A stretch of DNA of 64,000 nt from an uncultured Gammaproteobacteria bacterium (GTDB lineage Bacteria; Patescibacteriota; Patescibacteriia; Magasanikbacterales; UBA922), in contig CAYUTO010000004.1 of NCBI GenBank assembly GCA_964447765.1, forward strand, positions 22,561 to 86,560. The letters are read 5' to 3'. How positions within the stretch are numbered: position 1 is the first letter of the stretch; each line of letters begins with the position of its first letter. Below the pieces are notes generated by a model that saw only the letters and a list, made by a program, of their open reading frames with translations, was not told the origin of the DNA and made no database searches. This document shows, piece after piece, positions 13,962 through 64,000 of this stretch. Both the position numbers and the translations under genes were made by a program.

Positions 13962-14013
13962 ATAAATTACAAGTTACGTGGCTTAAAGACAATAATTCCG
14001 ACGGGTGTCGGAA

Positions 14014-14448: not shown

Positions 14449-14474
14449 ACAAAAAAATTTATAAATGCCTTATA

Positions 14475-15122: not shown

Positions 15123-15141
15123 ATAGCTAGTCTTATAATGG

Positions 15142-15516: not shown

Positions 15517-15527
15517 ATACTAGAATA

Positions 15528-16076: not shown

Positions 16077-16096
16077 ATAAGTCTAAATAGTTGCTG

Positions 16097-16486: not shown

Positions 16487-16522
16487 ACGTAATTGATAAT
16501 TAGTTTAGGTATAGAGTCAGGC

Positions 16523-16708
16523 TTACCAGCTCGACTTTCGGACGCCAGGGAGCGCTGCTTTATTCGCAAGCTCTCGAAAACAGATTCTGCACAATTTAAA
16601 TTTGCGCATATATCCACGCTTGCGTCCACAATGCCAACATCTGCGTACAACGCGGGTGCTGAATTTTGGTGTTTTTGCTGATTTTGAGATTTGTGCCTGT
16701 GTTGCCAT
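16523..16708 (-). CDS. rpsZ: 30S ribosomal protein S14 type Z (zinc-binding, 61 aa)
   Basis: CxxC...CxxC ([10 protein letters not shown]...CRICFRE). Start trimmed to the ATG at 16708, just after the rplE stop. Confidence 0.85.
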
Positions 16709-16721
16709 AACCGTAAATAAT

Positions 16722-17273
16722 TTATTTCTTTCTGAAAGGGAACCCGAGCTCCTCAAGTAACGCGCGGCCTTCTTCATTCGTTGTAGCAGTGGTCGAAATC
16801 GTCATCTCAAGTCCGTGAATCTGGTCAGCTGAATCTCCTCCGATTTCAGGGAATGCGAGATGTTCCTTGAACCCAATCGTGTAATTTCCTTTTCCATCGA
16901 AACTTTTTGGATTAAGTCCTCGAAAATCTCGTACACGAGGGAGTGTCAAATGGATAAGCTTATACATAAAATCATACATGTGCTCTCCTCGAACGGTCAC
17001 CGATGATCCGATCTCAGTCCCTTCTCGAAGTTTAAAGTTCGAGATAGACTTCTTCGCTTTATTGCGAACCGGCTTTTGACCAGAAATTCTTCGAAGAGTT
17101 TCCTCAACTCGCTCAATGAATGCATTTTCTTTTGCGCGCTTACCATATCCGACATTAAGCACAACCTTCGTGATACGAGGAATCTGCATTACATTAGTAT
17201 ATCCCATTTTTTCTTTGAGTTTTGGGACTACTTGAGTTTTATAGAGTTGATACAGTGATGATTTCATATACAA
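16722..17273 (-). CDS. rplE: 50S ribosomal protein L5
   Basis: Conserved L5 segments ([16 protein letters not shown]...DFRGL); operon position. Confidence 0.9.
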
Positions 17274-17275
17274 AA

Positions 17276-17596
17276 TTATCCGATAATTTCATTACTTCCT
17301 TTTGCAACACGTTTTTTAGCGTCTCCTTCAATTCGATATCCTACACGTGTACCTTTATTAGTTTTAGGATCAATTACAGCCACGGCACTTGCATGTATTG
17401 GAGAAGGTAATTCAATAACCTGACCCTTTTCCCCCTGTCTTCCAGCTCGCAAATGTTTTTTGAGAACATTTACTCCTTCTACCACCACATACGACTGTGC
17501 AGTTGCCTTGTTGCGTAATACCTGAACAATCTTACCGGTTTTACCACGGTCTTTTCCTGATAATATTACTACATTGTCTCCTGTCTTTATTTTCAT
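17276..17596 (-). CDS. rplX: 50S ribosomal protein L24
   Basis: KOW motif MKIKTGDNVVILSGKDRGKTGKI. Confidence 0.85.
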   Translation of the reverse strand: MKIKTGDNVVILSGKDRGKTGKIVQVLRNKATAQSYVVVEGVNVLKKHLRAGRQGEKGQVIELPSPIHASAVAVIDPKTNKGTRVGYRIEGDAKKRVAKGSNEIIG

Positions 17597-17611
17597 ATAA
17601 TTTTTCTGAAT

Positions 17612-17983
17612 TTAGAGGACTTCTGGAGCAAGAGAAACAATACGCTGGTATCCTTTTTGACGAAGTTCACGAGCAATCGGTCCGAAAATACGTGTTCCTT
17701 TTGGTTCACCTGACGCTTTATCGATAATAACCACTGCATTCTCATCAAAACGAATATAGGTTCCGTCGCGGCGGCGTAATTCTTTTCTCTGGCGTACAAT
17801 AACAGCATGAACGACTTCACCTTTTTTCACCTGGGTACGAGGAAGTGCTTCTTTTACACTACAGGTAATGATATCACCAATTTGTGCAAAACGTTTTCTG
17901 TAACCGCCGAGTACGCGAATACACATGAGCTTTTTAGCTCCGCTATTATCCGCTACACTTAGCATACTTCTATGTTGAATCAT
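17612..17983 (-). CDS. rplN: 50S ribosomal protein L14
   Basis: [27 protein letters not shown]. Confidence 0.9.
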
Positions 17984-18003
17984 ATATACAGATTACGTTT
18001 GTG

Positions 18004-18279
18004 TTATGAGCGTGCACGCACGAGAACTTTAACCAATGTCCATCGTTTCGTCTTACTCAATGGACGACATTCTTCAAATAATACCGTATCCCCAACATGC
18101 GCCTGAGCATTTTCATCGTGCACTGGATATTTTTTATCTCGGCTGTACTGCTTGTCGTACTTAGGATGAGTTTTAATACTCTTAACCTTCACGTGGATAG
18201 TTTTATTTTCTTTGGTAGAAACTACTTCGCCTTCAAAACGTCGGCGTTGTGCAGTTTGTTTGGTTGGTACAGTAGTCAT
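18004..18279 (-). CDS. rpsQ: 30S ribosomal protein S17
   Basis: GEVVSTKENKTIHVKV...HPKYDK OB-fold signature. Confidence 0.85.
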   Translation of the reverse strand: MTTVPTKQTAQRRRFEGEVVSTKENKTIHVKVKSIKTHPKYDKQYSRDKKYPVHDENAQAHVGDTVLFEECRPLSKTKRWTLVKVLVRARS

Positions 18280-18293
18280 AATCTAAAATGATA

Positions 18294-18500
18294 TTATTTT
18301 TTCACGTTGTCAGTATTCTTTGCGCTAATCGCACCAAGAATGCGGGCAATGTCAGTTCGTACTTCACGAATAGATCGTACATCCTTCAATTGATTACCAC
18401 TCACTGAAAAACGGAGCGTACGTAATTCTTCCCGTTTCGAAGAAAGGCTCTCATGTAGTTCCTGTACACTTTGTGATTGTAGATCTTTCGCATTAACCAT
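18294..18500 (-). CDS. rpmC: 50S ribosomal protein L29
   Basis: 68-aa helical protein (LQSQSVQELHESLSSKREELRTLRF) between rplP and rpsQ. Confidence 0.75.
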   Translation of the reverse strand: MVNAKDLQSQSVQELHESLSSKREELRTLRFSVSGNQLKDVRSIREVRTDIARILGAISAKNTDNVKK

Positions 18501-18526
18501 ACTAACGAGAATAAATAATCAAGTAA

Positions 18527-18937
18527 TTATCGTTTAACAAATAGCGCTGTAACCGGAAGCTTGTATGCTGCCTGTGTCAGTGCCTCACGTGCTTCAACCT
18601 CTGTTACCCCTTCCATTTCAAACATGACAACTCCTGGCTTGATGGTGCACACATAGTGATCAGGAGATCCTTTTCCTCCACCCATCGGTACTTCGCTTCC
18701 TTTTCTGGTCACTGGTCGATCTGGGAAAATACGAATCCAGATTTTTCCTCCACGTTTCACATATCGAGTCATGACACGGCGAGCTGCTTCAATCTGTCGA
18801 CTTGATACCCATGCATGTGAAGTTGACTTCAAGCCAAAACTTCCAAACGCAACAGTAGTCATGCGTGAAGCAACACCCTTATTCATGCGTCGTGGTTTAT
18901 GCCACTTTCTATGTTTTACTTTTTTAGGGACTAACAT
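18527..18937 (-). CDS. rplP: 50S ribosomal protein L16
   Basis: [16 protein letters not shown] start. Trimmed to the ATG at 18937, which is 1 nt after the rpsC stop. Confidence 0.9.
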
Positions 18938-18938
18938 A

Positions 18939-19625
18939 TTATTTCTTTTTGCGTTTAATTGACTCAGTTTTCTCGGCCAATTTATCAATCTCTACAAATG
19001 ATTCACCAAGATAAATCCAGACTTTAACTCCAATCGCTCCGTAAATAGTGCGTGCAGTATAATTGGTATAATCAACATTACTTCGGAGAGTTGCCAAAGG
19101 AATTTTTCCAGAAGACAATGTTTCTCGGCGTGCAATTTCAGCTCCATTAAGTCGTCCTGATACTGAAATTTTTACCCCTTGCGCTCCAGCTTTCATGACA
19201 CGTTCAATAGTCTGCTTCATGATTCTTCTAAATGGGATACGATTTTCAATATCTTTTGCAATCATTTCAGCAACAATTGGAGCTGAGAGTGATGGACTAC
19301 GAACTTCCTGCACATTGAGCTTGACCACAACTGCCATTTTCAAAAATTTGCGCTCAATATCTTTTTTCAAAACTTCGAGCCCTTGTCCACCTCGTCCAAT
19401 TACTACTCCAGGCTTACCTGCAAAAATAGTAATAGTGATATTTTTTGGGCCACGTTCAATAAATACAGAATCAATCTGTGCATCTTTGAACTTTCCTGCT
19501 AAGTACTCACGAATTCTAATGTCTTGTTCCAAATACTGAGGGTACTTCGAAATAGAGACCCAGCGGGAGACCCAAGGGAATAGAATTCCTGTTCGAAAGA
19601 TTTTGGGGTGGACTTTGTGACCCAT
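18939..19625 (-). CDS. rpsC: 30S ribosomal protein S3
   Basis: [14 protein letters not shown] start, KH domain, [10 protein letters not shown] motif. Confidence 0.9.
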
Positions 19626-19656
19626 ACGAATGAAATAAATCGTTATCTAGATATGA

Positions 19657-20154
19657 TTATGAAACTTTTGTGTCAGTCTTTTTTGCTCGAGGCTTTTTTG
19701 CAGCAGTTGTCTTTTTTGTCGTCTTTTTCGTGGTAGATTTTTTAGTATCTACTGGAGCATCTGTTGCAACCACCTCTTCTGAGGGAGTTACCACTTCAAC
19801 TGGAGCATTACCTGATCCTTCGCCCGTAAGCACGAGAGTAATGTGCGAACTTCTCTTGCGGAGAGGTGTCGCGCGTCCCTGTGCTCGAGGCATCCATCGT
19901 TTAAGCACTGTGCCTTCGTTTACAAAAATTGATGAAATAACTAATGTGGTCGTATCCATGCGATGGTTGTGAACCGCATTTGCAATTGCTGACTGCAATA
20001 GAGTATACAGTGGTTTCGCAGCAGCTTTCCTCGAAAACTGAAGCTGAGCTGACGCATCCTGCACATGCATTCCCCTGATCAAATCAACCACTAGTCGTAC
20101 TTTCTGAGGACTCATGCGTAAACTATTCAATTGTGCTTTTGATTCAAGCTTCAT
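19657..20154 (-). CDS. rplV: 50S ribosomal protein L22 with a Lys/Thr-rich C-terminal extension
   Basis: L22 core (SPQKVRLVVDLIRG...); tail KKSTTKKTTKKTTAAKKPRAKK. Confidence 0.85.
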   Translation of the reverse strand: MKLESKAQLNSLRMSPQKVRLVVDLIRGMHVQDASAQLQFSRKAAAKPLYTLLQSAIANAVHNHRMDTTTLVISSIFVNEGTVLKRWMPRAQGRATPLRKRSSHITLVLTGEGSGNAPVEVVTPSEEVVATDAPVDTKKSTTKKTTKKTTAAKKPRAKKTDTKVS

Positions 20155-20165
20155 ATATCGCTAAA

Positions 20166-20489
20166 TTATTTTGCTGGAGCCGCTGCTGCAGGTTTTGCTG
20201 GAGCCGCTGCTTTAGTTTCTTCTTTTGCCATCTTTCCCCCATGGCTCACAAATTTACGAGTCAAAGAAAATTCTCCCAGTTTGTGTCCTACCATATTTTC
20301 ATCAATCAATACTTCAGGAAAATCTTTACCATTATGAACCTGAAATTTCATACCTACCATTATAGGAGTGATCGTTGAGGCTCGCGCCCAAGTCTTAATT
20401 GGTTTTTTTTCTCCACTCTTAAGAGCCTTCTCTACTTTTTCCATGAGCTTGGCATCAGTATATGGTCCTTTTTTCAAACTTCGTGACAT
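20166..20489 (-). CDS. rpsS: 30S ribosomal protein S19 with a C-terminal Ala/Pro/Lys tail
   Basis: [12 protein letters not shown]...NGKDF; tail [13 protein letters not shown]. Confidence 0.9.
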
Positions 20490-20535
20490 AGGGTATCTTT
20501 ATTCGTAAATTCGATTTATTCGGGTGAAACTTATA

Positions 20536-21381
20536 TTACTTTTTCTTCTTTGAACCCCTTCTCGATACAATAAACTTATCACTTGCTTTCTTCAATCGAG
20601 TCTTCACACCACGGGCTGCTTTTCCCCATGGAGTTCGAGGTCCTCGTCTCTGTCCAATTGGAGAATGTCCTTCTCCTCCACCGTGTGGATGGTCAACCGG
20701 GTTCATATTTTTACCAATAACGGTTGGTCGGATTCCACGAAAACGCATACGTCCAGCTTTTCCCCAGCGAATCAGCTTGTAATCTGCATTTCCCAATTGT
20801 CCTACAGACGCAATACATTCTTTTTTAACCAATCGAACTTCAGAAGATGGCATTTTCAGCTGTGCATATTTTCCTTCAATAACCATGAGTTGTACTCCAA
20901 TACCTGCTCCACGTCCGAGTTGTCCACCTTTTCCTGGTTCCAATTCTACGTTATAGACAAACATTCCGGCAGGGATATGTTCAAGAGGCATTCGATTTCC
21001 AATTTTTGGTTCAAGTTTTTCTTTTGAAGAAACAATAACATCTCCGACTTTGATTCCTTCGTATCCAAGAACATATGACTTCTTTCCACCTGCATATTCA
21101 ATGAGAGCAACGCGTGGTCCACGGTTTGGATCGTACTCAATTGCAATAACAGTCGCTGGTATATCAAACACCTGTTGTTTGAAATCAACCATTCGATAAT
21201 ATCTCTTTACTCCACCACCCTGATGTCGTACGGTAATTTTTCCCGTATTGTTTCGACCAGAATGTTTTTTCAATGGAATAATCAATGATTTTTCTGGATT
21301 ATGCTTAGTGATATCAGAAAAATCCTGAACACTTGAGTTCCGTCGCCCTGCACTGGTTGGTTTATGGATTTTGATTGGCAT
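20536..21381 (-). CDS. rplB: 50S ribosomal protein L2
   Basis: Conserved GRRNSSV...HPHGGGEGHSPIGQRRGP. Confidence 0.95.
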   Translation of the reverse strand: MPIKIHKPTSAGRRNSSVQDFSDITKHNPEKSLIIPLKKHSGRNNTGKITVRHQGGGVKRYYRMVDFKQQVFDIPATVIAIEYDPNRGPRVALIEYAGGKKSYVLGYEGIKVGDVIVSSKEKLEPKIGNRMPLEHIPAGMFVYNVELEPGKGGQLGRGAGIGVQLMVIEGKYAQLKMPSSEVRLVKKECIASVGQLGNADYKLIRWGKAGRMRFRGIRPTVIGKNMNPVDHPHGGGEGHSPIGQRRGPRTPWGKAARGVKTRLKKASDKFIVSRRGSKKKK

Positions 21382-21414
21382 ACGTAATGGATTCTTCTAA
21401 AAAATTGTTTAGGT

Positions 21415-21822
21415 TTATACCCCTTCGTGTATACGGATAGAGTCTCCTTCTTTGAGAATAACGACTGCTTTCTTATAACCTGCTCGTCTTCCGTTGAAAG
21501 TTCCGAATCGTACGCTCTTTCCTTCTACTCTACTCGTACGAATTTTATATGGAGCCACACCATAGACTTGTGTCACTGCGCGTCTAATGTCTGCTTTGGT
21601 AGCACGTGTACTTACGATAAAACTATATGAACGACGTGATTCAAGAAGTGCAGCTTTCTCACTCGTAATTGGTCGGATGAGAACTCGGAATGCTGCCCCA
21701 GTCTGCTTTCCACCTGCTGCGCTTACAGCCTTTGATTCAGCTTTTTTAGCACGTGCTTTTGGAGCACTTTTCACTTCAGAAGCCTCTGCAGGTTTTTTTG
21801 AAAATTTGTTAAGCAAACTCAT
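21415..21822 (-). CDS. rplW: 50S ribosomal protein L23 with a roughly 40-aa basic N-terminal extension
   Basis: C-terminal L23 core (RVLIRPITSEKA...YSFIV...); position between rplD and rplB. Confidence 0.8.
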   Translation of the reverse strand: MSLLNKFSKKPAEASEVKSAPKARAKKAESKAVSAAGGKQTGAAFRVLIRPITSEKAALLESRRSYSFIVSTRATKADIRRAVTQVYGVAPYKIRTSRVEGKSVRFGTFNGRRAGYKKAVVILKEGDSIRIHEGV

Positions 21823-21826
21823 ATAA

Positions 21827-22456
21827 TTATTTTACAAATCGTTTTTCAAGTACTGATACAGCATCCTTTGATGCAATGACATACTGATGATGCATTAAAT
21901 CAATCACACTCACGTCCTGTGCGCGAACAACATCAAGATTATGAACGTTGCGTGTAGCATTAGTCAATTCAGGAGTAAACTCTGACACCAAAAGCATCGT
22001 AGTTCTTCCACTTCCTGGAAGTACACTTCGGAATTGTGAAGCAGTCTGAGATTTACCTTTGAAGTCGTATGCTTCAACCACGATCAATCGATCATTCTGA
22101 ACTTTATCTGAAAGACATGATTTTACTGCACCTGCTTTCATTTTTTTATTGATTTTTTGTGTATAACTTCGTTCACTCAAAGGTCCAAAAGTGATACCTC
22201 CACCTCTCCACAAAGGAGATCGGATAGAACCGTGTCTCGCACGTCCAGTACCTTTTTGCTTCCATGGTTTTTTTCCACCACCACGAACATCTCCTCGCAT
22301 CTTGGTATGTGCAAAAGGCTGACGAGCATTAGCGCGCATTGCGACATATACCTGATGAATCAGAGATGAGTTTGAAGCTACTCCAAACACAGCTTCATTC
22401 ACCTGAAGTTCAGATTGTTTTTCTCCTGATTGGTTGTATACAGCTACCTTAGTCAT
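21827..22456 (-). CDS. rplD: 50S ribosomal protein L4
   Basis: GGGKKPWKQKGTGRARHGSIRSPLWRGGG motif. Confidence 0.85.
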   Translation of the reverse strand: MTKVAVYNQSGEKQSELQVNEAVFGVASNSSLIHQVYVAMRANARQPFAHTKMRGDVRGGGKKPWKQKGTGRARHGSIRSPLWRGGGITFGPLSERSYTQKINKKMKAGAVKSCLSDKVQNDRLIVVEAYDFKGKSQTASQFRSVLPGSGRTTMLLVSEFTPELTNATRNVHNLDVVRAQDVSVIDLMHHQYVIASKDAVSVLEKRFVK

Positions 22457-22480
22457 ACAATTATAAATGGCTCTAAAAAA

Positions 22481-23191
22481 TTATGCCGTAACTGTCTCTC
22501 CGGCTGACGTATCAGCTACTGGTTCGAGAACTGGTGCTTCCACTACTGACTCTTTGATTTCTTCAATAGTAATACTTCCGTCATTCGTAGAAATATAGAG
22601 GAGTCCATTTCGTGCTCCAGGAACCGCTCCTTTAATGAAGAGTTCATGTGCCTCAGGATGTACTTCAACCACTTCCAAATTTTTGACAGTTACCTGATCA
22701 GCTCCCATATGTCCTCCCATGCGCATGTTCTTGAAGACTCTCTGTACACCACCAGCTCCAATACTTCCAGGCATACGAAGGTTGTCTTTGTGTCCATGAC
22801 TTGCAGGACCTCCGGCAAATCCATGGCGTTTTACTACACCTTGGAAACCTTTTCCTTTTGACATACCAGTAACCTGCACTTTCTCGCCTGCAGCAAAAAT
22901 ACTTGCATTGAATTGATCACCTTTCTTAAGATTCTCTGATTCAGCTCTAAAATCCTTGAGGAATCGAACAGTTGCCTGTGGATCATTGTGTGCAGAAATT
23001 CCTTTGAGGTGACCTTTTTCAGATTTGCTCAAGCGGAATAATTTTTGACTTCCAAAGCCAATCTGAACTGCGCCTGGTTTTACCTGGGTTACTACACATG
23101 GACCTGCCTGAACACGAGTAACAGGAACTACCGTTCCATCAGCTCGAAACACCTGTGTCATTCCAATTTTTTTACCAATGATGAATTTCAT
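22481..23191 (-). CDS. rplC: 50S ribosomal protein L3
   Basis: MKFIIGKKIGMTQVF...; conserved L3 segments. Confidence 0.9.
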   Translation of the reverse strand: MKFIIGKKIGMTQVFRADGTVVPVTRVQAGPCVVTQVKPGAVQIGFGSQKLFRLSKSEKGHLKGISAHNDPQATVRFLKDFRAESENLKKGDQFNASIFAAGEKVQVTGMSKGKGFQGVVKRHGFAGGPASHGHKDNLRMPGSIGAGGVQRVFKNMRMGGHMGADQVTVKNLEVVEVHPEAHELFIKGAVPGARNGLLYISTNDGSITIEEIKESVVEAPVLEPVADTSAGETVTA

Positions 23192-23239
23192 ACCAGTTGT
23201 TGATTTTGTGAAAACTTCCTAGTTATTTCTATTAAAAAA

Positions 23240-23296
23240 CTAGAAGTAGCGGCGCCACCTAATACACATGTGTATAAGTGACAATGCTGCTTCTAG
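23240..23296 (-). promoter_or_regulatory. Attenuator-like hairpin plus U-tract in the rplC leader
   Basis: 57-nt imperfect inverted repeat ctagaagtagcg...tgctgcttctag, followed on the minus strand by UUUUUUAAU about 45 nt upstream of the rplC ATG. Confidence 0.45.
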
Positions 23297-23445
23297 CCTC
23301 TAAAAACCATAGTACCTATGGAGTTATCTAAGGCGTTGTAGTGAATATGTAATGAATACTAACCTCATGTATACATCTTGTCTCGGTCCAGATGTTTTCC
23401 TTTTATATGGATCTTATCTGTGCAAAACCAATGTATGTGGGCTCT

Positions 23446-23474
23446 AGTGTAACCTATCTTTATACATCTGTCAA
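23446..23474 (-). promoter_or_regulatory. Sigma70-like promoter inside the rpsJ-rplC spacer
   Basis: On the minus strand: TTGACA, 17 nt spacer, TACACT. The TTGACAGATGT motif is shared with the 16S promoter. Confidence 0.5.
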
Positions 23475-23565
23475 GGGCTACTTCGAGCCGTAAAATACGT
23501 AATTTTTTTGTGAATGTTGACCTCTCGTTTACAGTCCCTAGAAAAGGGTAATTACACCCTTATAG

Positions 23566-23910
23566 TTACATCATTTTGATCTCCACATCAACTCCACTTG
23601 GCAAATTAAGGTTCATGAGAGCATCAATTGCCTTAGGACTTGGAGAATGGATATCAAGCAAACGTTTGTGCGTGCGCATTTCAAACTGTTCTTGTGCAGT
23701 CTTGTGCACAAATGTTGCACGGTTCACACTATACTTCTGAATGTGCGTTGGAAGTGGAACTGGACCTACTACTTTAGCGCCATTGCGCTCTGCAGTATCA
23801 ATAATAGTCTTTGTAGCACCATCAATGATCTTATGATCATACGCTTTAATTTTTACTCGAACGCGTGGACCGACTTCTTCTGTTTTTTTTACGGGTGTTG
23901 GAGTGACCAT
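23566..23910 (-). CDS. rpsJ: 30S ribosomal protein S10
   Basis: [40 protein letters not shown], canonical S10. Confidence 0.9.
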
Positions 23911-23921
23911 ATAAATGAGCT

Positions 23922-23961
23922 AATAAAAAGGGCAACCCAGCCCTCCGATCGGAGGGCTGGG
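23922..23961 (-). terminator. Intrinsic terminator after tuf
   Basis: Hairpin cccagccctccgatcggagggctggg followed on the minus strand by uugcccuuuuua. Confidence 0.7.
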
Positions 23962-23971
23962 TATATTAAAG

Positions 23972-25162
23972 TTAGACAAGAATCTTAGTTACAACTCCTG
24001 CTCCTACAGTTCGTCCACCTTCGCGGATAGCAAATCGCATTTGCTCTTCGATAGCTACAGGAACAATAAGTTTGATTTTAACATTAACCGTATCTCCAGG
24101 CATTACCATTTCAGTTCCCTCAGGAAGGGTTACTTCTCCAGTAACGTCAGTAGTTCGGATATAGAACTGAGGTTTGTATCCATTGAAGAAAGGTTTGTGT
24201 CGTCCACCTTCTTCTTTGGTAAGTGCATATACTTCAGCTTCTACTTCAGTATGAGGTTTGATAGTACCAATCTTTGCAAGTACCATTCCGCGCTCTACTT
24301 CTTCTTTCTTGGTACCACGAAGAAGGATACCAGCGTTGTCTCCAGCCTGCCCTTGTCCCAATGATTTGTTGAACATTTCAACTCCAGTTACGGTAGTCTT
24401 CATAGGTTCAGCGCGCATACCAACAATTTCGATTTCGTCACCGATTTTGATGATACCACGTTCAATACGACCAGTAACTACAGTTCCACGTCCTTCAATT
24501 GAGAACACATCTTCTACGGGCATGAAGAAATTCTTATCAAGATCACGAATTGGATCTGGAATATAATCATCAAGAGTCTTCAAGAGATCAAGAATTGGCT
24601 TAGCTGCTTCAGGATCATTTGGGTTCTCAAGCGCTTTGAGTGATGAACCACGAACAATTGGAGTAGTGTCTCCAGGGAAATTGTATTTCTTCAAAAGATC
24701 ACGAACTTCCTCTTCAACGAGGTCGATAAGTTCAGGATCACTTACCTGATCAACTTTGTTGAGATATACCACGATATAAGGTACACCTACTTGTCTTGCA
24801 AGCAAGATGTGCTCACGTGTCTGAGGCATCGGACCGTCTGCTGCTGAAACTACGAGAATAGCTCCATCCATCTGAGCCGCACCAGTGATCATGTTTTTAA
24901 CATAATCAGCGTGACCTGGACAATCTACGTGTGCATAGTGTCGTTTTTCAGTTTCGTATTCTACGTGTGCAGTAGCAATCGTGATCCCACGAGCTTTTTC
25001 TTCAGGAGCTGCATCGATTTCATCAACACCTTTTGATTGAGCTGTCAAACCATGAGCTGCGGCAACCTTAAGGATTGCAGCGGTCGTAGTAGTCTTACCG
25101 TGGTCAACGTGACCAATGGTTCCCACATTCACATGCGGTTTGTTTCTTAGAAATTCTGCCAT
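23972..25162 (-). CDS. tuf: Elongation factor Tu
   Basis: [17 protein letters not shown] and NKVD G-motifs; 396 aa. Confidence 0.95.
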
Positions 25163-27107: not shown

Positions 27108-28613
<1,506 letters not shown>

Positions 28614-55784: not shown

Positions 55785-56534
55785 TCAGGTCGGGAGGTAT
55801 CCCGACGCAGAACCGTTGTACGGACTAGCTTCATCGATCCAGCGTGCACTGAAATACAGACAATCCATGTTCTGAATATTGAAGTTCGGGGCGCACATTT
55901 CTCGTCCAAGGAGATCCAACGGATCGTATGCATCTCCAGCACAATCGATATTCAAATCACTACGATGCTGCAGACGTTCAGGATGCGTCAGAAGCATGGT
56001 CCCGACCATGTATGAGTCGAGACCGAACTCATTTCGACCGAACATCTCACGCGCTCGACGGATCGAACGTCCGCGGTGACGGAGTCCGAATTGAGCAGGA
56101 ATGATGAGGATATCGCCCGACTGTTGTTCCGTGAGCCGCGTGAGCCATGTCCAGTGCAGAGACTTCGTGCGGTGTATCTGCTGCGGAACGAACTTGGAAT
56201 TTCCAAGACGCACGCCCGTGCCACGACTCAGACGAAGCGCTGCCAGCACATGAGCCAACTGATTTGTCTCTTTTTCAAACGTACGAGAGTCACTACCATC
56301 ATGGCAGTACAGATTCTTCGGTCGGACGAGAGCGAAGGGGTCCTCCACCCACCTGGGAATCTTGAGGTTCGGATACACCTCGCGCATGTACCGCAGAGCA
56401 GGATCAGGATCCAGATTCGACCAGTGAGACCGGATGATGTCGATCTGGTCCTCCACACTCTTCGGCTTCTCATAGCCAGAGTAATAACCCCACTTGGACA
56501 CCTTCTCTTCGTTAGCGAATCGGTTGCTCATCAC
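55785..56534 (-). CDS. Hypothetical protein (249 aa) in a G+C-rich islet
   Basis: Uninterrupted ORF, visibly GC-richer than its neighbours, with a hairpin downstream (gaagcccg...cgggcttc); no recognisable domain. Confidence 0.45.
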   Translation of the reverse strand: MMSNRFANEEKVSKWGYYSGYEKPKSVEDQIDIIRSHWSNLDPDPALRYMREVYPNLKIPRWVEDPFALVRPKNLYCHDGSDSRTFEKETNQLAHVLAALRLSRGTGVRLGNSKFVPQQIHRTKSLHWTWLTRLTEQQSGDILIIPAQFGLRHRGRSIRRAREMFGRNEFGLDSYMVGTMLLTHPERLQHRSDLNIDCAGDAYDPLDLLGREMCAPNFNIQNMDCLYFSARWIDEASPYNGSASGYLPT

Positions 56535-56673
56535 AGATCTCCTGATTGATTGTGGTTCGGTCTGACAATGTGCCAGATTCTAATACTAAACTTCTCAGAA
56601 CAAAGCAAACTACCATAATAAGTGCTTTTTGTCAATACAAAAACTCCCCGCTTTAGACGGAGAGTTTTTAAAA

Positions 56674-59600
56674 CTATTTCAACTCTTCACCATCCTCATA
56701 CACTTCATTCTCATCAATTACGATGATGCGATCTCCTCTAAAGTTAAGTTTAGTGAATGCATCTTCAGTTACGATCCATCGTTTGATGAGCTTAGATGAA
56801 TCAGTAGGATCTACTTCAAGACGATACACTTTGGGAGAAGTAGTATATTTGATGAGGGTGTAGGCAGGATGAACGTCGGTTCTCGTAATCTCTTCACCCA
56901 CCTTATATGCATCAAGAAGACGAGGGTCTACATCTTCAATCCAGTCTGAGCGATAGTTCAACTTGTTGAACACTTCTTCACTGGTAATCCAGTATTTCGT
57001 ATCATTAATGAGTACATAGACTTTAGGATCATAGGGAGTTTTAATGAGTGCTCCATAGGTTGGACGATACAGGGGTCCGAGAGGTAAGAATGACAGCGGA
57101 TCAAGAGGGACTGAAGTGAGGGTTACATTGGTAACCACACCTACATCACTCCATGATGAGAAGTAAGTAAAATACGTTCGTTCATTCGGAATTGGCCGCC
57201 TCGTACAGTCTGACGTGACATAGAATACTGAAGGAGAGCCTGATGATTTATATGGCTGCTCCGGAGTAAGTGGACATGCGTTTGAGGTAAGGGTAATCGT
57301 GTCTGAAAGAATGAGTTCTCCCCCTTCAGGAGTTCGTAATTTAACGTATACGGTCTTTTCTCCATTCCCAAGAGGGAGCGTGTACCAGAGTGGAGAGATG
57401 AGTGATTCAAATGATCCATTGGCGAATGTAGGGTCAGTAGAAACAGCAACCATGGAAGCATTAGGTGAAGTTATATGCAGAGACACCAAGCGACTGTTTG
57501 TTGAGAGTGCTCCCTGGTTGATCGTGAAGTGAGATGCTGAAGACGGAAGGGTGGGAGGAAGGTATGGGATACCGCCGTTTGAGGAAGATGTATCGTTAGA
57601 GTCACTGTCACCCTCCCCTTCTTCACCCATCAGAGCAAAAAGTGAGAATCCAGGAGTGTCACAGGTGACGGTAAAAAGACTCGTGTTAATTGTGCACGGA
57701 GAGAGTTCGGTCCATGTGCTAGTTGCATAACGATAAATAACTAAGGTAGTAGGGTCGAGACTCCCAAGTGTATCTGGATCGTAGGTCATGGTGAGTTCAA
57801 TTGGTTCATCGAATTCTGAGATGATAGTTGAGGTGTTTGCAATTGCTTTGAGATGAAAAACGAGAGAACCAACGACTGTTCTACCAGCAGGAATGCCTCC
57901 GTCTTCAATCACCGTTACAGTATCTACTTGTTTAATCTGGAACACAACATCAGTGGAAGTAGTAAATGCAGGAGGAATATCAAGAGCAATACTCTCAGCT
58001 ACCGTCTCAAGTTGAATAGTAGCACCTAAACTTGAAGAAACTGCAGAACTCTCTGAAGCAATTACCGGCGCTGAAAATGAACACCCTTGAGTCACAAACG
58101 TGCGATGAGAACTAGTTGCAACATCACCATCAGCTGTCACAGCACGAGGAGTGTAGTGATAAACCGTACAAGGTAGTAACCCAGTCATCAAAACTTCATG
58201 AGTAGTAACTCTGGAAGATGTATTACTCTCAGTAGTCGAAACTCCCAGTGATGCAACCAACCCATACAACACTCGAGATGAAGCAAGTCGATTAGTAGAC
58301 CACGAGATAGTAGCAGTTGAAGTGCTGATATTAGTTGAAGTGACACTAGAAATGCTTAATAGTGCGTTAGTGATAGTAGAAGTAACAGAAGAATACGCAC
58401 TCGAAGTCGATACGTTATCAGCGCGCACTTGAAATGAATAACTAGAATTAGGAGTGAGTCCAGTAAAAGTATAACTTGTCTCAGTAGTAGTAACGACTGA
58501 CCCCACAGTACTAGAGATAGAGTAGAATGTTGCACCTGCAGCAGAAGACCACGACAATTGAACTGAAGAAGTAGAAAAAGTACTTGTAGTAAATTCAGGA
58601 GAGGAAAGACTAGTCAATTCTGAAAATGTCAAAATATATGCAGCTCCTGAATTAGAACCATTTACATTTGTTTCACTTGGAGCACCTACAATCAACACAT
58701 CATTAGTTTTATCAAAAGAAACCTCAACACCAAACCATGAATCAATACTTGCATCAGATGCAACCAATTTTTCATTCTCTTCCCAATCTCCACTTTCTCG
58801 GTCAAAAATATATACGGCTCCAGTGTCAGTAGTATTACCAGATGCACCAATCGCAACTTTCTCACCTAGACCATCGATTGCAACAGCTTCACCAAAAAAG
58901 TTACTTGCTGCAGCATCACTTGCGACAACCTTTTGATCTAATGACCACGATACCCCACTCCGCACAAAAACATACCCCGAACCAGAAGCACTCCCAGCGT
59001 CATCATTTGAATAAGCTCCAACAACGACATACTCCCCTGAATCAGAAATGGAAACTGCATTACCAAAAAAATCACTAGCGGCAGGATCATTTGCATTTAG
59101 TTTTGCCTGTTGAGCCCAAGTACTGGTCGTACGATAAAACACATAGGCAGAACCAGAACTAAGAGCAGTATCATCATCATTCGGAGCTCCGACAAGTATA
59201 TAATCACCTGATTCTGAGATATCTACAGCTCGACCAAACCAATCGTCAGCCGCCCGGTCGGTAGGAACTATTTTTTGCTGTTGTGACCATACTCCACTTC
59301 CATCTCTTTTAAAAATATATGCAGAGCCTGCTGCACTCAATGTATTAGCACCCGCAGCATCCTGATCCTCGCGATATGCACCAATAATTGCATATTCACC
59401 CGCCATAGCAAGTTTATCACCAAAAAAATCTTGATTTGCAAGATCACTTGAAACAAGTCTTTGATGAAGATCCCATGAGGAGCCCGTACGTTTATAGACA
59501 AACACCGCACCAGCCTGCGACCCATCATTATGGTCGGTCACCATAGCATAATCACCCGCAATCGCTACATTTTCCGCAAAAAAAGTAGAACCAGTCGATG

Positions 59601-59868
59601 TGGTAATCATCGCCTGCTGAATCCAAGAACCATCCTCAAAATGAAAAATATAAGCTTTCTTTTGATTATCAACTCCAACTATTGCATAGTCGCCAGAGAC
59701 ATCAACTGAGTATCCAAATCCCTGACTAGCCACTCCATCTGAAGGAAGAATTTTAGCATCTTCTACCCAAGCGGCCCGAATAAAATCAAAATGAATATAA
59801 AAAGATAAAAAACCAAAAGCAATAATGCTTAAAATCCAAAAAGATTTGTTAAAAAGAAATTTTTGCAT
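56674..59868 (-). CDS. Giant secreted or surface-anchored protein (1064 aa): N-terminal signal/anchor, FG-GAP-like beta-propeller repeats, two FN3-like domains, conserved C-terminal module of about 450 aa
   Basis: N-terminal hydrophobic segment. Repeats of the type DFFGxAVxIxxxGDYxxVGAP. FN3-like segments (LSWSSAAGATFYSIS...SYSFQVRADN). The C-terminal region is nearly identical to its downstream paralog. Confidence 0.7.
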   Translation of the reverse strand: MQKFLFNKSFWILSIIAFGFLSFYIHFDFIRAAWVEDAKILPSDGVASQGFGYSVDVSGDYAIVGVDNQKKAYIFHFEDGSWIQQAMITTSTGSTFFAENVAIAGDYAMVTDHNDGSQAGAVFVYKRTGSSWDLHQRLVSSDLANQDFFGDKLAMAGEYAIIGAYREDQDAAGANTLSAAGSAYIFKRDGSGVWSQQQKIVPTDRAADDWFGRAVDISESGDYILVGAPNDDDTALSSGSAYVFYRTTSTWAQQAKLNANDPAASDFFGNAVSISDSGEYVVVGAYSNDDAGSASGSGYVFVRSGVSWSLDQKVVASDAAASNFFGEAVAIDGLGEKVAIGASGNTTDTGAVYIFDRESGDWEENEKLVASDASIDSWFGVEVSFDKTNDVLIVGAPSETNVNGSNSGAAYILTFSELTSLSSPEFTTSTFSTSSVQLSWSSAAGATFYSISSTVGSVVTTTETSYTFTGLTPNSSYSFQVRADNVSTSSAYSSVTSTITNALLSISSVTSTNISTSTATISWSTNRLASSRVLYGLVASLGVSTTESNTSSRVTTHEVLMTGLLPCTVYHYTPRAVTADGDVATSSHRTFVTQGCSFSAPVIASESSAVSSSLGATIQLETVAESIALDIPPAFTTSTDVVFQIKQVDTVTVIEDGGIPAGRTVVGSLVFHLKAIANTSTIISEFDEPIELTMTYDPDTLGSLDPTTLVIYRYATSTWTELSPCTINTSLFTVTCDTPGFSLFALMGEEGEGDSDSNDTSSSNGGIPYLPPTLPSSASHFTINQGALSTNSRLVSLHITSPNASMVAVSTDPTFANGSFESLISPLWYTLPLGNGEKTVYVKLRTPEGGELILSDTITLTSNACPLTPEQPYKSSGSPSVFYVTSDCTRRPIPNERTYFTYFSSWSDVGVVTNVTLTSVPLDPLSFLPLGPLYRPTYGALIKTPYDPKVYVLINDTKYWITSEEVFNKLNYRSDWIEDVDPRLLDAYKVGEEITRTDVHPAYTLIKYTTSPKVYRLEVDPTDSSKLIKRWIVTEDAFTKLNFRGDRIIVIDENEVYEDGEELK

Positions 59869-59929
59869 AGTCCTATAATAAAGTATAGTGATAGTATATC
59901 ATATCAAAAAATAAAAATTTTAACCTTCT

Positions 59930-62900
59930 TTATTCCAAACTTTCACCATCTTCATACACTTCACTCTCACCAATCACGATGATTCGATCTCCTCTGAAGT
60001 TGAGTTTCTTGAACGCGTCCTCAGTTACAATCCAGCGCTTGATAAGTTTGGTTGCATCAGTAAGATCAACTTCAAGACGATAGACCTTGGGGGAATTTTG
60101 GTACTTAATCAGAGTGAACGCAGGATGAACGTCAGTTCGAGTTATTTCTTCTCCTACATTATATGCATCAAGAAGACGAGAATCTACATCCTCGATCCAG
60201 TCTGAGCGATAGTTAAGTTTAGCGAATACTATCTCATCCGTGACCCAATATTTGGTGTCGTTAATCAAAACGTATACTTTGGGATCTCCCGGTGTCTTGA
60301 TGAGTGCTCCATAGGTAGGACGGTACAAAGGACCAAGAGGAAGGAAAGAGAAAGCATCGAGAGGCACTGAAGTAAGAGTAGCAAGAGATACAACACCTAC
60401 ATCGCTCCATGATGAAAAGTAAGTAAAATACGTTCTTTCATTCGGAATTGGCCGTCTCGTACAGTCTGACGTGACGTAGAATACTGAGGAAGAACTCAAT
60501 GTTTTGTAGGGACGCTCTGGTGTAAGTGGGCATGCGTTTGAGGTTAGAGTAATAGTATCTGAGAGGATGAGCTCTCCCCCTTCAGAGGTTCGTAATTTGA
60601 TATAAACCGTCTTTTCTCCATTCCCGAGAGGGAGTGTATACCAGAGTGGAGAAATCAGTGATTCAAATGATCCATTGGTAAATGTAGAATCAGAAGAGAC
60701 AGCAACCATCGAAGCATTAGGTGAAGTTATATGCAGAGACACCAAGCGACTGTTTGTTGAGAGCGCTCCTTGATTAATAGTAAATTGAGATACCGAAGAC
60801 GGAGGGGCGGGAGGGATATATGGGATACCACCGTTTAAGGGAGATGTATCACCAGCACCACCCTCATCATCCCCTTCTTCTCCCATAAGAGCAAAAAGTG
60901 AGAATCCAGGGGTGTCACAAGTAACGGTAAAGGCGTTCGTATTTACAGTGCAAGGAGAAAGTTGTGTCCATTCGTCATCAGTATATCTAAAGATTGACAA
61001 CGTCGTTGTATCAATCCCCTCAAGGTCACTTGGATCATACGTCATAGTAACCTCAACCGGTTCATCAAAAGTTGAGATAATAGTTGAAGTGTCTGAAATA
61101 GCTTTAAAATCAAAAACAAGAGACCCGATAATATTTTTACCCGCAGGCAACCCTCCATCAGTCGTAACAATATCCTTCTCAAGTCGCTTGAGCTGAAAAG
61201 CGGCGGCAGTCGTACTTGTAAATCCAGTTGGCACAGTAAGGGAAACCCCGTTACCTGATTCCAAAAACGTAATCGACCCTCCAGACGAAGAAGACACTAC
61301 GGAAGCTTCATGAGATATAATTGGTGCAGAAAATTGACACCCCCGAGTAGCAAAGGTGCGTTTAGAACTCGTAGTAAAATCTCCTGATCCTGCAACCGCT
61401 CGAGGTGTATAATTATAAACCGTACAAGGAACAAGATTAGTAAGAGAAACCTCATGATCAAGAACTCGAGTGAGTGTATTGATTTCTGTAGTAGACACAC
61501 CGAGGGAAGTAATAAATCCGTATAAAATTCGAGAAGACGCAGGGCGGTTCGTAATCCAAGAGATAGTTGCAGTCGAAGTTCCAACGTTAGTTGAAGTCAC
61601 ATTTGAAATAACAAGAGTTGGTTGTGTTGAGGTGGTAAAAACAGAAGAATAAGAACTTGAAGTTGATAAATTATTTGCTCGTACTTGGAACGAATAACTC
61701 GTATTAGGATTAAGTCCAGAAAAAGTATAATTAGTTGCAGCAGTAGTAACTGGAGAAGTCGCAGTTGAAGAAACAGTATATGAGGTTGCACCAGAAACAG
61801 GTGACCATGAAAATGGTATAGAAGCTGCCGCAGCGGTAAAAGAAACAAACGAAGGAACTCCAAGAGAACTTCCCTCGGAGAGGGTGAACATCATAATTCG
61901 AGAATTCCCATTATCAGCCACATATAACCGATCATTATTAGAATCATAGGTTACCCCCTTAGGTGTTGCAAATTTTGATTGCGAAGCAGAGCCTGCTGCA
62001 CCCGTAAAATCAGTCTGCCCAAGAACATAACTTGCATTCATGCCATTTGAAATTGTGGTTGTTGAAAAGTCATATACTACCACTCGATCACTATCATTAT
62101 CTCCCACAAATAAACGTTGATTTTCTGCATCATACGCAAGACCTTGCGGATCATCTAATCCCGATTGTGTTGCAGCTGCAGAACTCCCTGTAAACGTTGA
62201 CTGACCAAGAACATAACTCGCACTTGGAAAATCAACTTCAGTCGTATTTGCAGGCGAAGCATCAAAAATAGATATTCTGTGAGCTGTAGTTTGAGTAACA
62301 TACAGACGTTCATTATCAACATCATAGGTCACGCCTCGCGTGCTAGGTAATGATGAAGTACTGATACCTGAATAGCCATTATCGAAATCCGGTGCACCAA
62401 AAATATATTTAGCATTCATACCATTTGAAATGGTACTCGTTGCAACATCGAACACAATAACTACTGCACCGCCCACAAAAAGTCGCTGATGTACAGGGTT
62501 ATAAGCCAACCCTGCTGGACTTGATAAACCTGCTTGTGTACCTAAAGCACTACCGTTCGTAAATAGAATCTGTCCAAGAACATAATTAGCAGGCATGCCG
62601 TTCGAAATTGTCGTTGTAGAAAAATCGTATACCTTAACACGATTATTACCTGTATCAGAGACAAACAAACGATTACTCACCAGATCATATGCAAGTCCGT
62701 CAGTATTATTGAAACCTACTTGGGTAGTCGCCGAACTATTGCCAGTAAATAAAGCTTGTCCAAGAATATGTAACGCAGGCTTACCATTTGAAATAGTCGT
62801 TGTGGAAAAATCAAAAATACTTACACGATTCGAATTAGACACAAAAAGTCGGCTATTATTTGAATCATACACGAGACCGTCAGGTGAAACCAATCCTACC

Positions 62901-64000
62901 TGAGTACTACCACTACTACCTACAGTAAAAGTGGTTTGTCCAAGCACATAGCTTGCACTCATACCATTCGTAATGGATATTGAAAGATCAAATACTAACA
63001 CTCGATTATTACCACCATCCGTAACAAAAAGATAATCATTTTCATAGTCATAGGCAAGACCCTGAGGAGCACTCATACCACTTTGAGTAGTAGCTTGCGT
63101 CTTAGTATTAAAATTAGACTGGCCCAATACATAATCAGCCTCATAATCAATTAAATCATTATTACTATCAAGAGTATGGACCAACACTCGATGATTCTGA
63201 TCATCCGACACAAACAACCGATGATTCACCGTATCAAGAAAAGTATAGTAAGGAAAATCAAACCCAATTCGTGTAGGACCATTATTGTAGCCAACTCTCG
63301 TATAAACTGGCACCAACTGATCACTGTCATTATAGTCAAAATGTCCAAGTAAATCAGTTGCGTTCATCCCATTAGTAATAGTTGATGTAGCCGCATTAAA
63401 AATACTCACTCGATTAGTACTATCTTGGACTACATACAATTTACCAGTCGTCTCATTATAAGCAAGCCCCCCTGACCCAAGAGTACTCGACTGTGTCGTA
63501 GCAAACGTAGAAGTAGTAAAATTCGGTTGACCTAACTGATAAGTAGCATTTTCTCCATTAGTAATAGACGCAACATCATATACTACAACTCGTCGATTAG
63601 AAGAATCATTTACAAATAAACGATTACTTATAGAATCATATGCGATACCACTAGGTGCACTCAATCCCGATTGAGTTGTAGCAGCAGTACTACCGGTAAA
63701 CGTAGTTTGTCCCAACACATAATTAGCAGGCATACCGTTCGAAATTGTCGTTGTAGAAAAATCATAGACGCTAACACGATTCGCATTTCCACCTTGCGCA
63801 ACAAATAAACGGTTATAAACCGAATCATAAGCAAGTCCCGTAGGGCCCCGAGTACTAGTTTGAGTCGTAACACCAGTGCTGGCCGTGAATGTAAGTTGTC
63901 CCAACACATAATTAGCAGGCATACCGTTCGAAATTGTCGTTGTAGAAAAATCATAGACGCTAACACGATTATTACCTGTCTGTCCAACAAATAATCGACT
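59930..64000 (-). CDS. Giant surface protein, paralog (more than 1356 aa; N-terminus lies beyond the window): NHL-type beta-propeller repeats, FN3-like domains, shared C-terminal module
   Basis: The frame stays open from the first in-window ATG (63922) up to the window edge. The repeat unit is LAYDxxxNRLFVxDxxNNRVxVYD. The C-terminal 450 aa are about 90% identical at the DNA level to 56674..58200. Confidence 0.7.
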   Translation of the reverse strand, partial: SRLFVGQTGNNRVSVYDFSTTTISNGMPANYVLGQLTFTASTGVTTQTSTRGPTGLAYDSVYNRLFVAQGGNANRVSVYDFSTTTISNGMPANYVLGQTTFTGSTAATTQSGLSAPSGIAYDSISNRLFVNDSSNRRVVVYDVASITNGENATYQLGQPNFTTSTFATTQSSTLGSGGLAYNETTGKLYVVQDSTNRVSIFNAATSTITNGMNATDLLGHFDYNDSDQLVPVYTRVGYNNGPTRIGFDFPYYTFLDTVNHRLFVSDDQNHRVLVHTLDSNNDLIDYEADYVLGQSNFNTKTQATTQSGMSAPQGLAYDYENDYLFVTDGGNNRVLVFDLSISITNGMSASYVLGQTTFTVGSSGSTQVGLVSPDGLVYDSNNSRLFVSNSNRVSIFDFSTTTISNGKPALHILGQALFTGNSSATTQVGFNNTDGLAYDLVSNRLFVSDTGNNRVKVYDFSTTTISNGMPANYVLGQILFTNGSALGTQAGLSSPAGLAYNPVHQRLFVGGAVVIVFDVATSTISNGMNAKYIFGAPDFDNGYSGISTSSLPSTRGVTYDVDNERLYVTQTTAHRISIFDASPANTTEVDFPSASYVLGQSTFTGSSAAATQSGLDDPQGLAYDAENQRLFVGDNDSDRVVVYDFSTTTISNGMNASYVLGQTDFTGAAGSASQSKFATPKGVTYDSNNDRLYVADNGNSRIMMFTLSEGSSLGVPSFVSFTAAAASIPFSWSPVSGATSYTVSSTATSPVTTAATNYTFSGLNPNTSYSFQVRANNLSTSSSYSSVFTTSTQPTLVISNVTSTNVGTSTATISWITNRPASSRILYGFITSLGVSTTEINTLTRVLDHEVSLTNLVPCTVYNYTPRAVAGSGDFTTSSKRTFATRGCQFSAPIISHEASVVSSSSGGSITFLESGNGVSLTVPTGFTSTTAAAFQLKRLEKDIVTTDGGLPAGKNIIGSLVFDFKAISDTSTIISTFDEPVEVTMTYDPSDLEGIDTTTLSIFRYTDDEWTQLSPCTVNTNAFTVTCDTPGFSLFALMGEEGDDEGGAGDTSPLNGGIPYIPPAPPSSVSQFTINQGALSTNSRLVSLHITSPNASMVAVSSDSTFTNGSFESLISPLWYTLPLGNGEKTVYIKLRTSEGGELILSDTITLTSNACPLTPERPYKTLSSSSVFYVTSDCTRRPIPNERTYFTYFSSWSDVGVVSLATLTSVPLDAFSFLPLGPLYRPTYGALIKTPGDPKVYVLINDTKYWVTDEIVFAKLNYRSDWIEDVDSRLLDAYNVGEEITRTDVHPAFTLIKYQNSPKVYRLEVDLTDATKLIKRWIVTEDAFKKLNFRGDRIIVIGESEVYEDGESLE

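Follow-up and report, generated by a model that had tools for sequence, protein, structure and literature searches.

The window analysed here is a stretch of 64,000 nucleotides from contig CAYUTO010000004.1 (assembly GCA_964447765.1, positions 22,561 to 86,560), and coordinates below are those of the window unless another record is named. At its far end lie two adjacent genes, A and B, which are arranged head to tail on the minus strand and encode large modular proteins. Both proteins end in a module of 200 residues built from three repeats, a putative cell wall-binding anchor, which is the main subject of this analysis. A is a complete open reading frame (ORF), and B has no in-frame stop codon from position 59930 to base 64000 and therefore continues beyond the window. 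This agrees with the first-pass annotation of this DNA, which had reported two adjacent genes of 1,064 and more than 1,356 residues, the second running past the window. The features of the two genes are as follows.

56674..59868 (-): gene A, complete, 1,064 residues (ORF and translation, Pfam; exact protein on record)
59930..64000 (-): 3' part of gene B, 1,356 of at least 1,887 codons (no stop codon to the window end; identity to a database protein; Pfam)
56677..57276 (-): three-repeat module of A, residues 865 to 1064, putative cell wall-binding anchor
59933..60532 (-): three-repeat module of B, 86% identical at the amino acid level to that of A; these two are the only copies in the window
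59773..59868 (-): predicted signal peptide or membrane anchor of A, residues 1 to 32, MQKFLFNKSFWILSIIAFGFLSFYIHFDFIRA (read by eye: a basic start followed by about 20 hydrophobic residues)
58624..59766 (-): FG-GAP (integrin alpha-like) beta-propeller of A, seven repeats, residues ~35 to 415 (PF14312 FG-GAP_2)
58090..58611 (-): two FN3-type domains of A, residues ~420 to 500 and ~509 to 593 (PF00041, E = 1.8e-10; PF16656, E = 1.7e-9)
57541..58083 (-): uncharacterised beta-rich domain and acidic Ser/Asp/Glu linker of A, residues ~596 to 776 (without a Pfam match)
57283..57540 (-): immunoglobulin (Ig)-like domain of A preceding the module, residues ~777 to 862
57127..57576 (-): tract of lower silent divergence in A, residues 765 to 914, about 450 bp (counterpart in B, 60383 to 60832)
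61883..64000 (-): NHL/SGL-type beta-propeller repeats of B, residues 1 to 706 of the part in the window, continuing upstream of the window (PF01436, PF08450)
61346..61855 (-): two FN3-type domains of B (PF00041, E = 1.7e-11; PF16656, E = 4.3e-10)
60539..61339 (-): beta-rich domain, acidic linker, and Ig-like domain of B, colinear with 57283 to 58083 of A (BLASTP, ungapped identity profile)
56638..56670 (-): intrinsic-terminator hairpin directly 3' of the stop codon of A, a 14-bp stem followed by a U-run

Read from the N terminus, A consists of a signal peptide or transmembrane segment, the FG-GAP propeller, an FN3 domain, an FN3-like domain, the beta-rich domain, the acidic linker, the Ig-like domain, and the three-repeat module. 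The order in B is NHL propellers, FN3 domain, FN3-like domain, beta-rich domain, linker, Ig-like domain, and module. All 1,356 residues of B visible in the window are 100% identical to residues 532 to 1887 of an 1,887-residue database protein (P0014), and a cluster look-up showed that A and P0014 are recorded on one NCBI contig of 160,648 bp. P0014 itself starts without a signal peptide, and its 1,887 residues are a lower bound for the length of B.

The two heads are unrelated, as the first-pass annotation had proposed. The FG-GAP_2 match in A extends over seven stretches (E = 1e-76; 253 bits against a cut-off of 23), whereas B is matched by NHL repeats, with an E value of 4.4e-26 in the part within the window and of 8.9e-43 in P0014, and no significant similarity was detected between the N-terminal heads of A and B. 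The FN3-like domains that had been noticed in both proteins were also recovered by Pfam: fn3 scored above its gathering threshold in each (41.3 and 44.6 bits against a cut-off of 25), and the PF16656 domain found in both A and B is the fn3-like Pur_ac_phosph_N domain. The beta-rich domain and the linker are the most divergent part of the region common to A and B. The Ig-like domain of A matches tandem repeats in two other proteins (P0007 and P0008; E = 2.7e-6 and 9.2e-5), and according to the family consensus such a domain precedes the module in many members that carry it C-terminally.

The module comprises the last 200 residues of each protein, starting at an invariant cysteine (C865 in A). 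Its three repeats have a unit of about 63 residues. Repeats 2 and 3 (PKVYVL...KYWI...LNYRSDWIEDVD and PKVYRLE...KRWI...LNFRGDRIIVID) are homologous (profile-profile E = 1e-15, probability 98.6%), and a degenerate third copy lies N-terminal to the other two (E = 1e-4 and 6e-4), in register with them and with the same beta-beta-beta-alpha pattern in the predicted structure. The two repeats of about 45 residues described earlier are thus both real, but the unit is longer and the additional copy had been missed. An AlphaFold2 model built with 41 family members reached a predicted local distance difference test score (pLDDT) of 94.5 and a predicted template modelling score (pTM) of 0.81, with the arrangement beta-beta-beta-alpha(-beta-alpha) occurring three times. 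A model based on a shallower set of 8 sequences (pLDDT 79.6) had a topology identical to that of the 41-member model. The invariant or nearly invariant elements include a Cys1-Cys24 pair, an inter-repeat linker of the form GPxYxPxYG, and many aromatic and acidic residues, for example those in WxWIEDVD. In A the two cysteines are Cys865 and Cys888, which are predicted to form a disulfide.

No catalogued family corresponds to this module. With the C-terminal 465 and 185 residues as queries, Pfam returned zero families at E values up to 10; none of the SLH, CWB2 (the type found in the Cwp proteins of Clostridioides difficile), LysM, SH3b, GW, choline-binding, dockerin, or PG_binding_1 domains matched in the module region. 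NCBIfam also returned zero families for the module, its only match being a sub-threshold one to PGF_pre_PGF upstream of it (E = 0.024; 14.6 bits against a cut-off of 28), and searches against PDB sequences gave no usable match with either a single sequence or a profile (profile E up to 10). A literature search found no prior description of the module in Patescibacteria. The module is an uncatalogued domain that is restricted to a lineage of the candidate phyla radiation (CPR) and confidently modelled; the principle of a constant anchor with variable heads is itself well known.

A and B are colinear without gaps from the first FN3 domain to the stop codon, over about 650 residues (1.95 kb), and the region common to them includes the two FN3 domains, the beta-rich domain, the Ig-like domain, and the 200-residue module. 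The identity between the genes, measured back from the stop codon and without gaps for the DNA, is given below.

Last 600 nt (200 residues): DNA identity 79%, protein identity 86%
Last 1,000 nt: DNA identity 81%
Last 300 residues: protein identity 87%
Last 1,500 nt: DNA identity 75%
Last 450 residues: protein identity 77%
Last 1,950 nt (650 residues): DNA identity 73%, protein identity 72%

These values are lower than the roughly 90% DNA identity over 1.5 kb and the near-identical module of 450 residues that had been reported from a first inspection, and the homology is also longer than it had appeared (about 650 residues rather than 450, and 1.95 kb rather than 1.5 kb). For comparison, the unrelated upstream parts of A and B align at about 40% identity (MAFFT), and fourfold degenerate sites in the shared region match at a frequency of 0.54 against 0.30 expected, so that the similarity is far above chance. 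The longest identical run of DNA is 53 bp.

Silent sites are near saturation. Synonymous divergence (dS; Nei-Gojobori) is 1.1 to 1.6 across most of the shared region, the terminal 200 codons included, and the ratio of nonsynonymous to synonymous divergence (dN/dS) is 0.06 to 0.09 in the last 300 codons and 0.18 to 0.34 farther upstream. A and B are thus the products of an old tandem duplication under purifying selection, and identity rises toward the C terminus because purifying selection strengthens in that direction, not because of recent duplication or exchange. That the two copies adjoin could suggest a duplication created during assembly, which the first-pass annotation had named as an alternative. 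This is refuted by the divergence itself, as the copies differ at about 20 to 25% of bases, mostly at silent positions, and both proteins are recorded from a single contig.

The shared 3' regions had also been viewed as high-identity repeats permitting recombination, so that A and B would form a cassette in which frequent gene conversion or head swapping generates surface variation. The genes do form a tandem pair with a common orientation and share 1.95 kb of colinear sequence, and one tract of about 150 codons (residues 765 to 914 of A), which holds the 53-bp identical run, has lower silent divergence than the rest. In this tract, which was picked after viewing the data, 59 of 80 fourfold sites are identical, compared with 88 of 191 elsewhere (Fisher p = 3e-5), and dS is 0.55 at residues 765 to 864 of A. 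The tract is compatible with one old gene-conversion event. However, even this best tract has a dS of about 0.55, DNA identity over the last 1,000 to 1,500 nt is only 75 to 81%, tandem pairs are rare, and purifying selection alone accounts for the C-terminal identity gradient; the alignments give no sign of ongoing exchange between A and B. We consider frequent recombination very unlikely, and as the main explanation an active cassette is rejected because of the dS of 1.1 to 1.6. As such, the pair is nothing unusual: its members arose by an old duplication and carry different heads on a conserved stalk, an arrangement known from many families of Gram-positive surface proteins.

Among the 70 related loci from the genome scan, only 2 have tandem genes with a module in each. 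Apart from the pair in the window, such genes lie at two loci of the Magasanikbacteria type, L063 (5025 to 8573) and L065 (4933 to 8576); each has an ORF of about 1,800 residues with only a partial module (profile positions ~3 to 133) and, about 3 kb downstream, an ORF of about 660 to 670 residues with a complete one.

The closest relative found is located in GCA_964565405.1 (CAZMEW010000003.1, locus L001, 6573 to 12016) and has a module 69% identical to that of the window. There, a single ORF encodes a signal peptide, NHL propellers, two FN3 domains, and FG-GAP repeats, within which it is interrupted by a scaffold gap (Ns); beyond the gap, FG-GAP, FN3, Ig-like, and module sequences resume. 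The fusion of NHL and FG-GAP propellers in one ORF indicates that the same building blocks form one gene there and two genes here. It also shows that domains have been shuffled, which is a point in favour of the cassette reading. Upstream of this relative are type IV pilus and competence genes (ComEC-type, PilM, N_methyl pilin, and prepilin peptidase) and a gene for an NAD-dependent DNA ligase.

The family to which the module belongs is large. A profile search (HMMER) of 1.84 billion cluster representatives yielded 3,969 matches at E < 1e-3, 1,079 at E < 1e-10, and 337 at E < 1e-30, and the complete module was found in proteins of 228 to 4,666 residues. A word-indexed search recovered only six module-bearing proteins and two weak matches to the upstream Ig-like domain. 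In a pattern scan with one genome per species, we identified the 70 loci mentioned above, nearly all of them in Candidatus Magasanikbacteria and some in Uhrbacteria, Paceibacter, and unclassified Patescibacteria, with up to three module copies per metagenome-assembled genome (MAG), a number that is a lower bound. Together with the cluster mates of the window proteins at 90% identity or more, which are annotated as Candidatus Magasanikbacteria, the occurrence of the related loci almost exclusively in Patescibacteria MAGs bears out the earlier proposal that the DNA comes from a CPR cell.

The Magasanikbacteria-type module is also found in many MAG records that bear the title "uncultured Gammaproteobacteria bacterium" (L005, L007, L012 to L014, L038, L040, and others). 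The gene content of the one inspected (L001/L005) is CPR-like, and the records include a complete chromosome of 1.23 Mb (OZ246405.1). The titles look like mislabelled taxonomy.

Across the family, the constant module is combined with many different partner domains in hundreds of proteins, which upholds the idea of a constant module on variable heads well beyond the two genes in which it was conceived. Of 152 representatives, 93 carry the module C-terminally, 34 directly after the signal peptide, and 21 internally, and 4 consist of essentially the module alone. An N-terminal hydrophobic stretch is present in 108 of the 146 proteins that start with Met, in a set of 155 consisting of the 152 representatives and three others. 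Where the module is internal, a PG_binding_1-like sequence (judged by eye) is present in the tail behind it in 18 of 21 cases. Of 46 members scanned with Pfam, 11 have PF01471 (PG_binding_1) directly behind the module, with a best E value of 1.1e-17; Pfam does not find this domain in A or B.

The partner domains identified with Pfam include adhesin-type or structural ones (fn3, Big_13, FG-GAP, BNR/PSII_BNR, Laminin_G_3, WG_beta_rep, cadherin-like, and beta-helix) as well as enzymes and inhibitors (CAP, GH9, SNase, Peptidase_S8, Kazal inhibitors, and DsbA/thioredoxin), and several partners also hold HExxH protease-like regions without a Pfam match. Because these partners include nucleases, proteases, and thiol oxidoreductases, a general retention at the surface fits all of them, whereas a substrate-specific carbohydrate-binding module would not. 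Proteins with an N-terminal module (P0003, P0018, P0026, P0031, and similar ones) often have tandem cysteine-rich repeats of about 20 residues (GCQYNNPSCGSNYDCVNNACI...), followed by an HExxH metalloprotease-like region that has no Pfam match.

The positions also bear on the part of the earlier proposal that regarded the module as an anchoring or secretion module. A C-terminal secretion or sorting signal, of the kind represented by the type IX secretion system C-terminal domain, sortase substrates, or PEP-CTERM proteins, would be in keeping with the C-terminal location in both window genes and in 93 of the 152 representatives. Yet the module directly follows the signal peptide or is internal in the 34 and 21 representatives given above, and the variation in position rules out an obligatory C-terminal sorting signal. 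In addition, the module is a folded domain of 200 residues for which no LPXTG motif, terminal transmembrane helix, or NCBIfam sorting-domain match was found. The secretion-signal reading is thus rejected on the position of the module, and taken together with an assembly artefact it has hardly any probability left. The anchoring part of the proposal, by contrast, fits the predicted fold, the frequent position of the module right beside PG_binding_1, and its presence at either end of secreted proteins.

Comparison of the predicted fold with known structures gave the following figures for each PDB entry.

3x3m, EccB1: 5.9 / 6.0
4f87, PlyCB: 4.6
6ist, wall-binding domain of LysIME-EF1: 4.6
3l9a, Streptococcus mutans C-terminal domain: 4.2-4.3
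7d55, wall-binding domain of Lys170: 3.6-3.8

The modelled domain resembles these folds consistently, whichever model or library is used, but only weakly. Foldseek against BFVD retrieved small actinophage proteins (E = 3.6e-7 and 5e-4) and, weakly, lysins of the CHAP, amidase, and lysozyme types. The repeats of EccB1 have themselves been likened to the wall-binding protein PlyCB (PMC4769845).

The module nevertheless differs from each of these systems. The PlyCB and enterococcal lysin wall-binding domains (4f87; LysIME-EF1, 6ist; Lys170, 7d55) have no detectable sequence similarity to it. They form homo-oligomeric rings, whereas the module unites three units in a single chain and has a conserved linker and a conserved cysteine pair; they are also phage-borne and combined with muralytic partners, whereas the module is cellular and is combined with adhesin-type domains and nonlytic enzymes. 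Compared with EccB, the module has no match to PF05108 or to the PDB sequence and lacks the type VII secretion system context, the membrane anchor, and the central domain. In contrast to the three repeats of the module, EccB1 has four, in quasi-twofold symmetry, and wall binding by EccB1 is unproven.

At the sequence level, the only relative outside the CPR family is phrog_9616, a phage family of 118 residues. All 41 module sequences tested match it (41/41; best E = 2.6e-10), and the match covers repeats 2 and 3; for A of the window, module residues 83 to 199 align with profile positions 12 to 117 of 118 (E = 0.0018). The actinophage relatives, such as those of Rhodococcus phage Weasels2 (A0A1I9SA71) and Streptomyces phage LukeCage (A0A345MGB2), are stand-alone proteins of about 100 to 118 residues with two repeats. 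Unlike the module, the phrog_9616 and actinophage proteins lack repeat 1 and the conserved linker, and they have no known function. A tblastn search of the phage records with repeats 2 and 3 gave only chance matches (E of 1 or more).

In its deployment, the module resembles the SLH, CWB2, LysM, GW, choline-binding, and PG_binding_1 modules. Like these noncovalent anchors of monoderm bacteria, it is conserved and internally repeated, occurs N- or C-terminally in many unrelated secreted proteins of one lineage, and is present in several copies per genome. PG_binding_1 is in the relatives a separate domain beside the module.

With moderate confidence, we favour the reading that A and B, as old tandem paralogues, are secreted surface proteins of Magasanikbacteria in which the module is a portable, lineage-specific, putative noncovalent wall anchor. 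Both proteins would be exported via Sec. The head would be a ligand-binding beta-propeller, of the FG-GAP type in A and with multiple NHL propellers in B, and it would be carried by a stalk common to both proteins and made of FN3, Ig-like, and beta-sandwich domains. The module itself would consist of three PlyCB/EccB-repeat-like beta-beta-beta-alpha units joined by the highly conserved GPxYxPxYG linker, and it probably binds peptidoglycan or a wall-associated polymer of the producing cell in a noncovalent manner. Such binding would keep heads, proteases, nucleases, and glycosidases on the cell surface, as SLH, CWB2, LysM, and GW domains do in Gram-positive bacteria.

We infer wall binding from the predicted fold, the adjacency to PG_binding_1, and the pattern of deployment; that the wall would be the producer's own is likewise an inference. 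A gene for MltG/YceG in the window indicates that this genome makes a peptidoglycan wall. In addition, the two invariant cysteines and the many invariant aromatic and acidic residues (Y, W, and WxWIEDVD) would fit an extracellular glycan-binding domain, as judged from residue conservation.

Several points weigh against this reading. Neither an experiment nor sequence-level homology links the module to a proven wall-binding protein, and its one outside sequence relative, phrog_9616, is without known function. If PG_binding_1 already binds the wall in the relatives that have it, the module may do something else. Moreover, the wall-binding domains of lysins bind the wall of the target cell, and the fold is silent on whose wall is bound. 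The signal peptide of A was recognised by eye only, the N terminus of B lies outside the window, and P0014 starts without a signal peptide. A scan of IMG/VR viral contigs found no copy of the module.

In the main alternative, the module would target the surface of another cell, a host or partner, and deliver adhesive propellers and degradative enzymes onto its envelope in a lysin-like manner. The first-pass annotation had likewise named A and B as candidates for a conjectural host attachment by an epibiotic cell. An episymbiotic lifestyle is found in many CPR bacteria, the wall-binding domains of phage lysins are the nearest folds of known function, and the proteases, nuclease, glycosidases, and CAP domains among the partners could act on a host. 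However, the lifestyle of Magasanikbacteria is not known and no host has been identified; if the only noncatalytic domain of a protein bound a foreign cell, the producer would lose that protein unless a tether held it as well; and the DsbA/thioredoxin and Kazal partners fit housekeeping on the producer's own surface better. The present data do not separate this alternative from anchoring to the producer's wall, and we regard it as unlikely. The bolder form of the idea is equally unlikely: the module would be a CPR-specific host-targeting domain that recognises an envelope polymer of the organism on which Magasanikbacteria live, and the hundreds of proteins tagged with it (propeller adhesins, proteases, nucleases, glycosidases, and CAP proteins) would be the host-interaction secretome of the lineage. 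If it were true, the labelled module could be used to probe environmental samples for hosts.

The possibility that PG_binding_1 provides the wall attachment, and thus frees the module for another job, is also compatible with a dockerin-like docking domain that would plug secreted enzymes and adhesins onto a scaffold protein, an S-layer, or a pilus. The distribution of the module is dockerin-like, with one conserved repeated unit at either end of many unrelated secreted enzymes, and type IV pilus genes lie near the closest homologue. On the other hand, neither a dockerin nor a cohesin signal was found with Pfam, and no partner gene that is conserved came to light. The folds most similar to the module belong to wall-binding domains rather than dockerins, and its wealth of invariant aromatic residues would be more usual in a glycan-binding domain. 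Docking appears improbable.

To our knowledge, Magasanikbacteria have no cultured member, and we know of no experimental information on their cell surface. A single recognisable module of 200 residues that tags a large and varied secreted set makes it possible to list the surface-associated proteome of the lineage by sequence only. As a compact and confidently modelled domain, the module could also be expressed as a binding probe for what CPR cells display and what they attach to. In this sense the module is of use as a marker and a probe, but it is hardly surprising.

B and A are separated by a spacer of 61 bp. The terminator hairpin that follows A has a predicted folding free energy of -17.9 kcal/mol (z = -5.6), and 0 of 200 shuffled sequences folded equally well. 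In the spacer, a consensus scan listed no terminator-like site; the same scan missed the terminator of A and was uninformative for promoters. With a terminator after A and none listed in the spacer, the gene pair probably closes a single transcription unit. Just downstream of A, past its terminator, is an ORF of 249 residues (55785 to 56534, minus strand) with no Pfam match and no obvious signal peptide.

In 2-kb bins, the GC skew is positive at 56001 to 58000 (+0.07) and at 60001 to 62000 (+0.10) and ranges from -0.04 to -0.26 elsewhere in the window; the GC content is raised, to 0.46, in the bin 56001 to 58000. These two bins hold the shared 3' regions, and their skew probably reflects the composition of the Ser/Thr-rich stalk and the module.

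The genes nearby are of the housekeeping type and encode RF2, PAP2, a nucleotidyl transferase, MltG/YceG, malic enzyme, a YgjP-like metallopeptidase-domain protein, and a PIF1-type helicase. The window also contains a complete bacterial 16S rRNA gene (27109 to 28612, minus strand; 1,436 bits, model positions 1 to 1533); no match to 23S or 5S rRNA was found anywhere in the 64 kb, and the rRNA genes therefore appear to be unlinked. Finally, small ORFs are densely packed on the minus strand at 12690 to 25162, flanked by ORFs of 396 and 423 residues, a layout that, judged from ORF sizes only, looks like a ribosomal-protein cluster (EF-Tu ... SecY).

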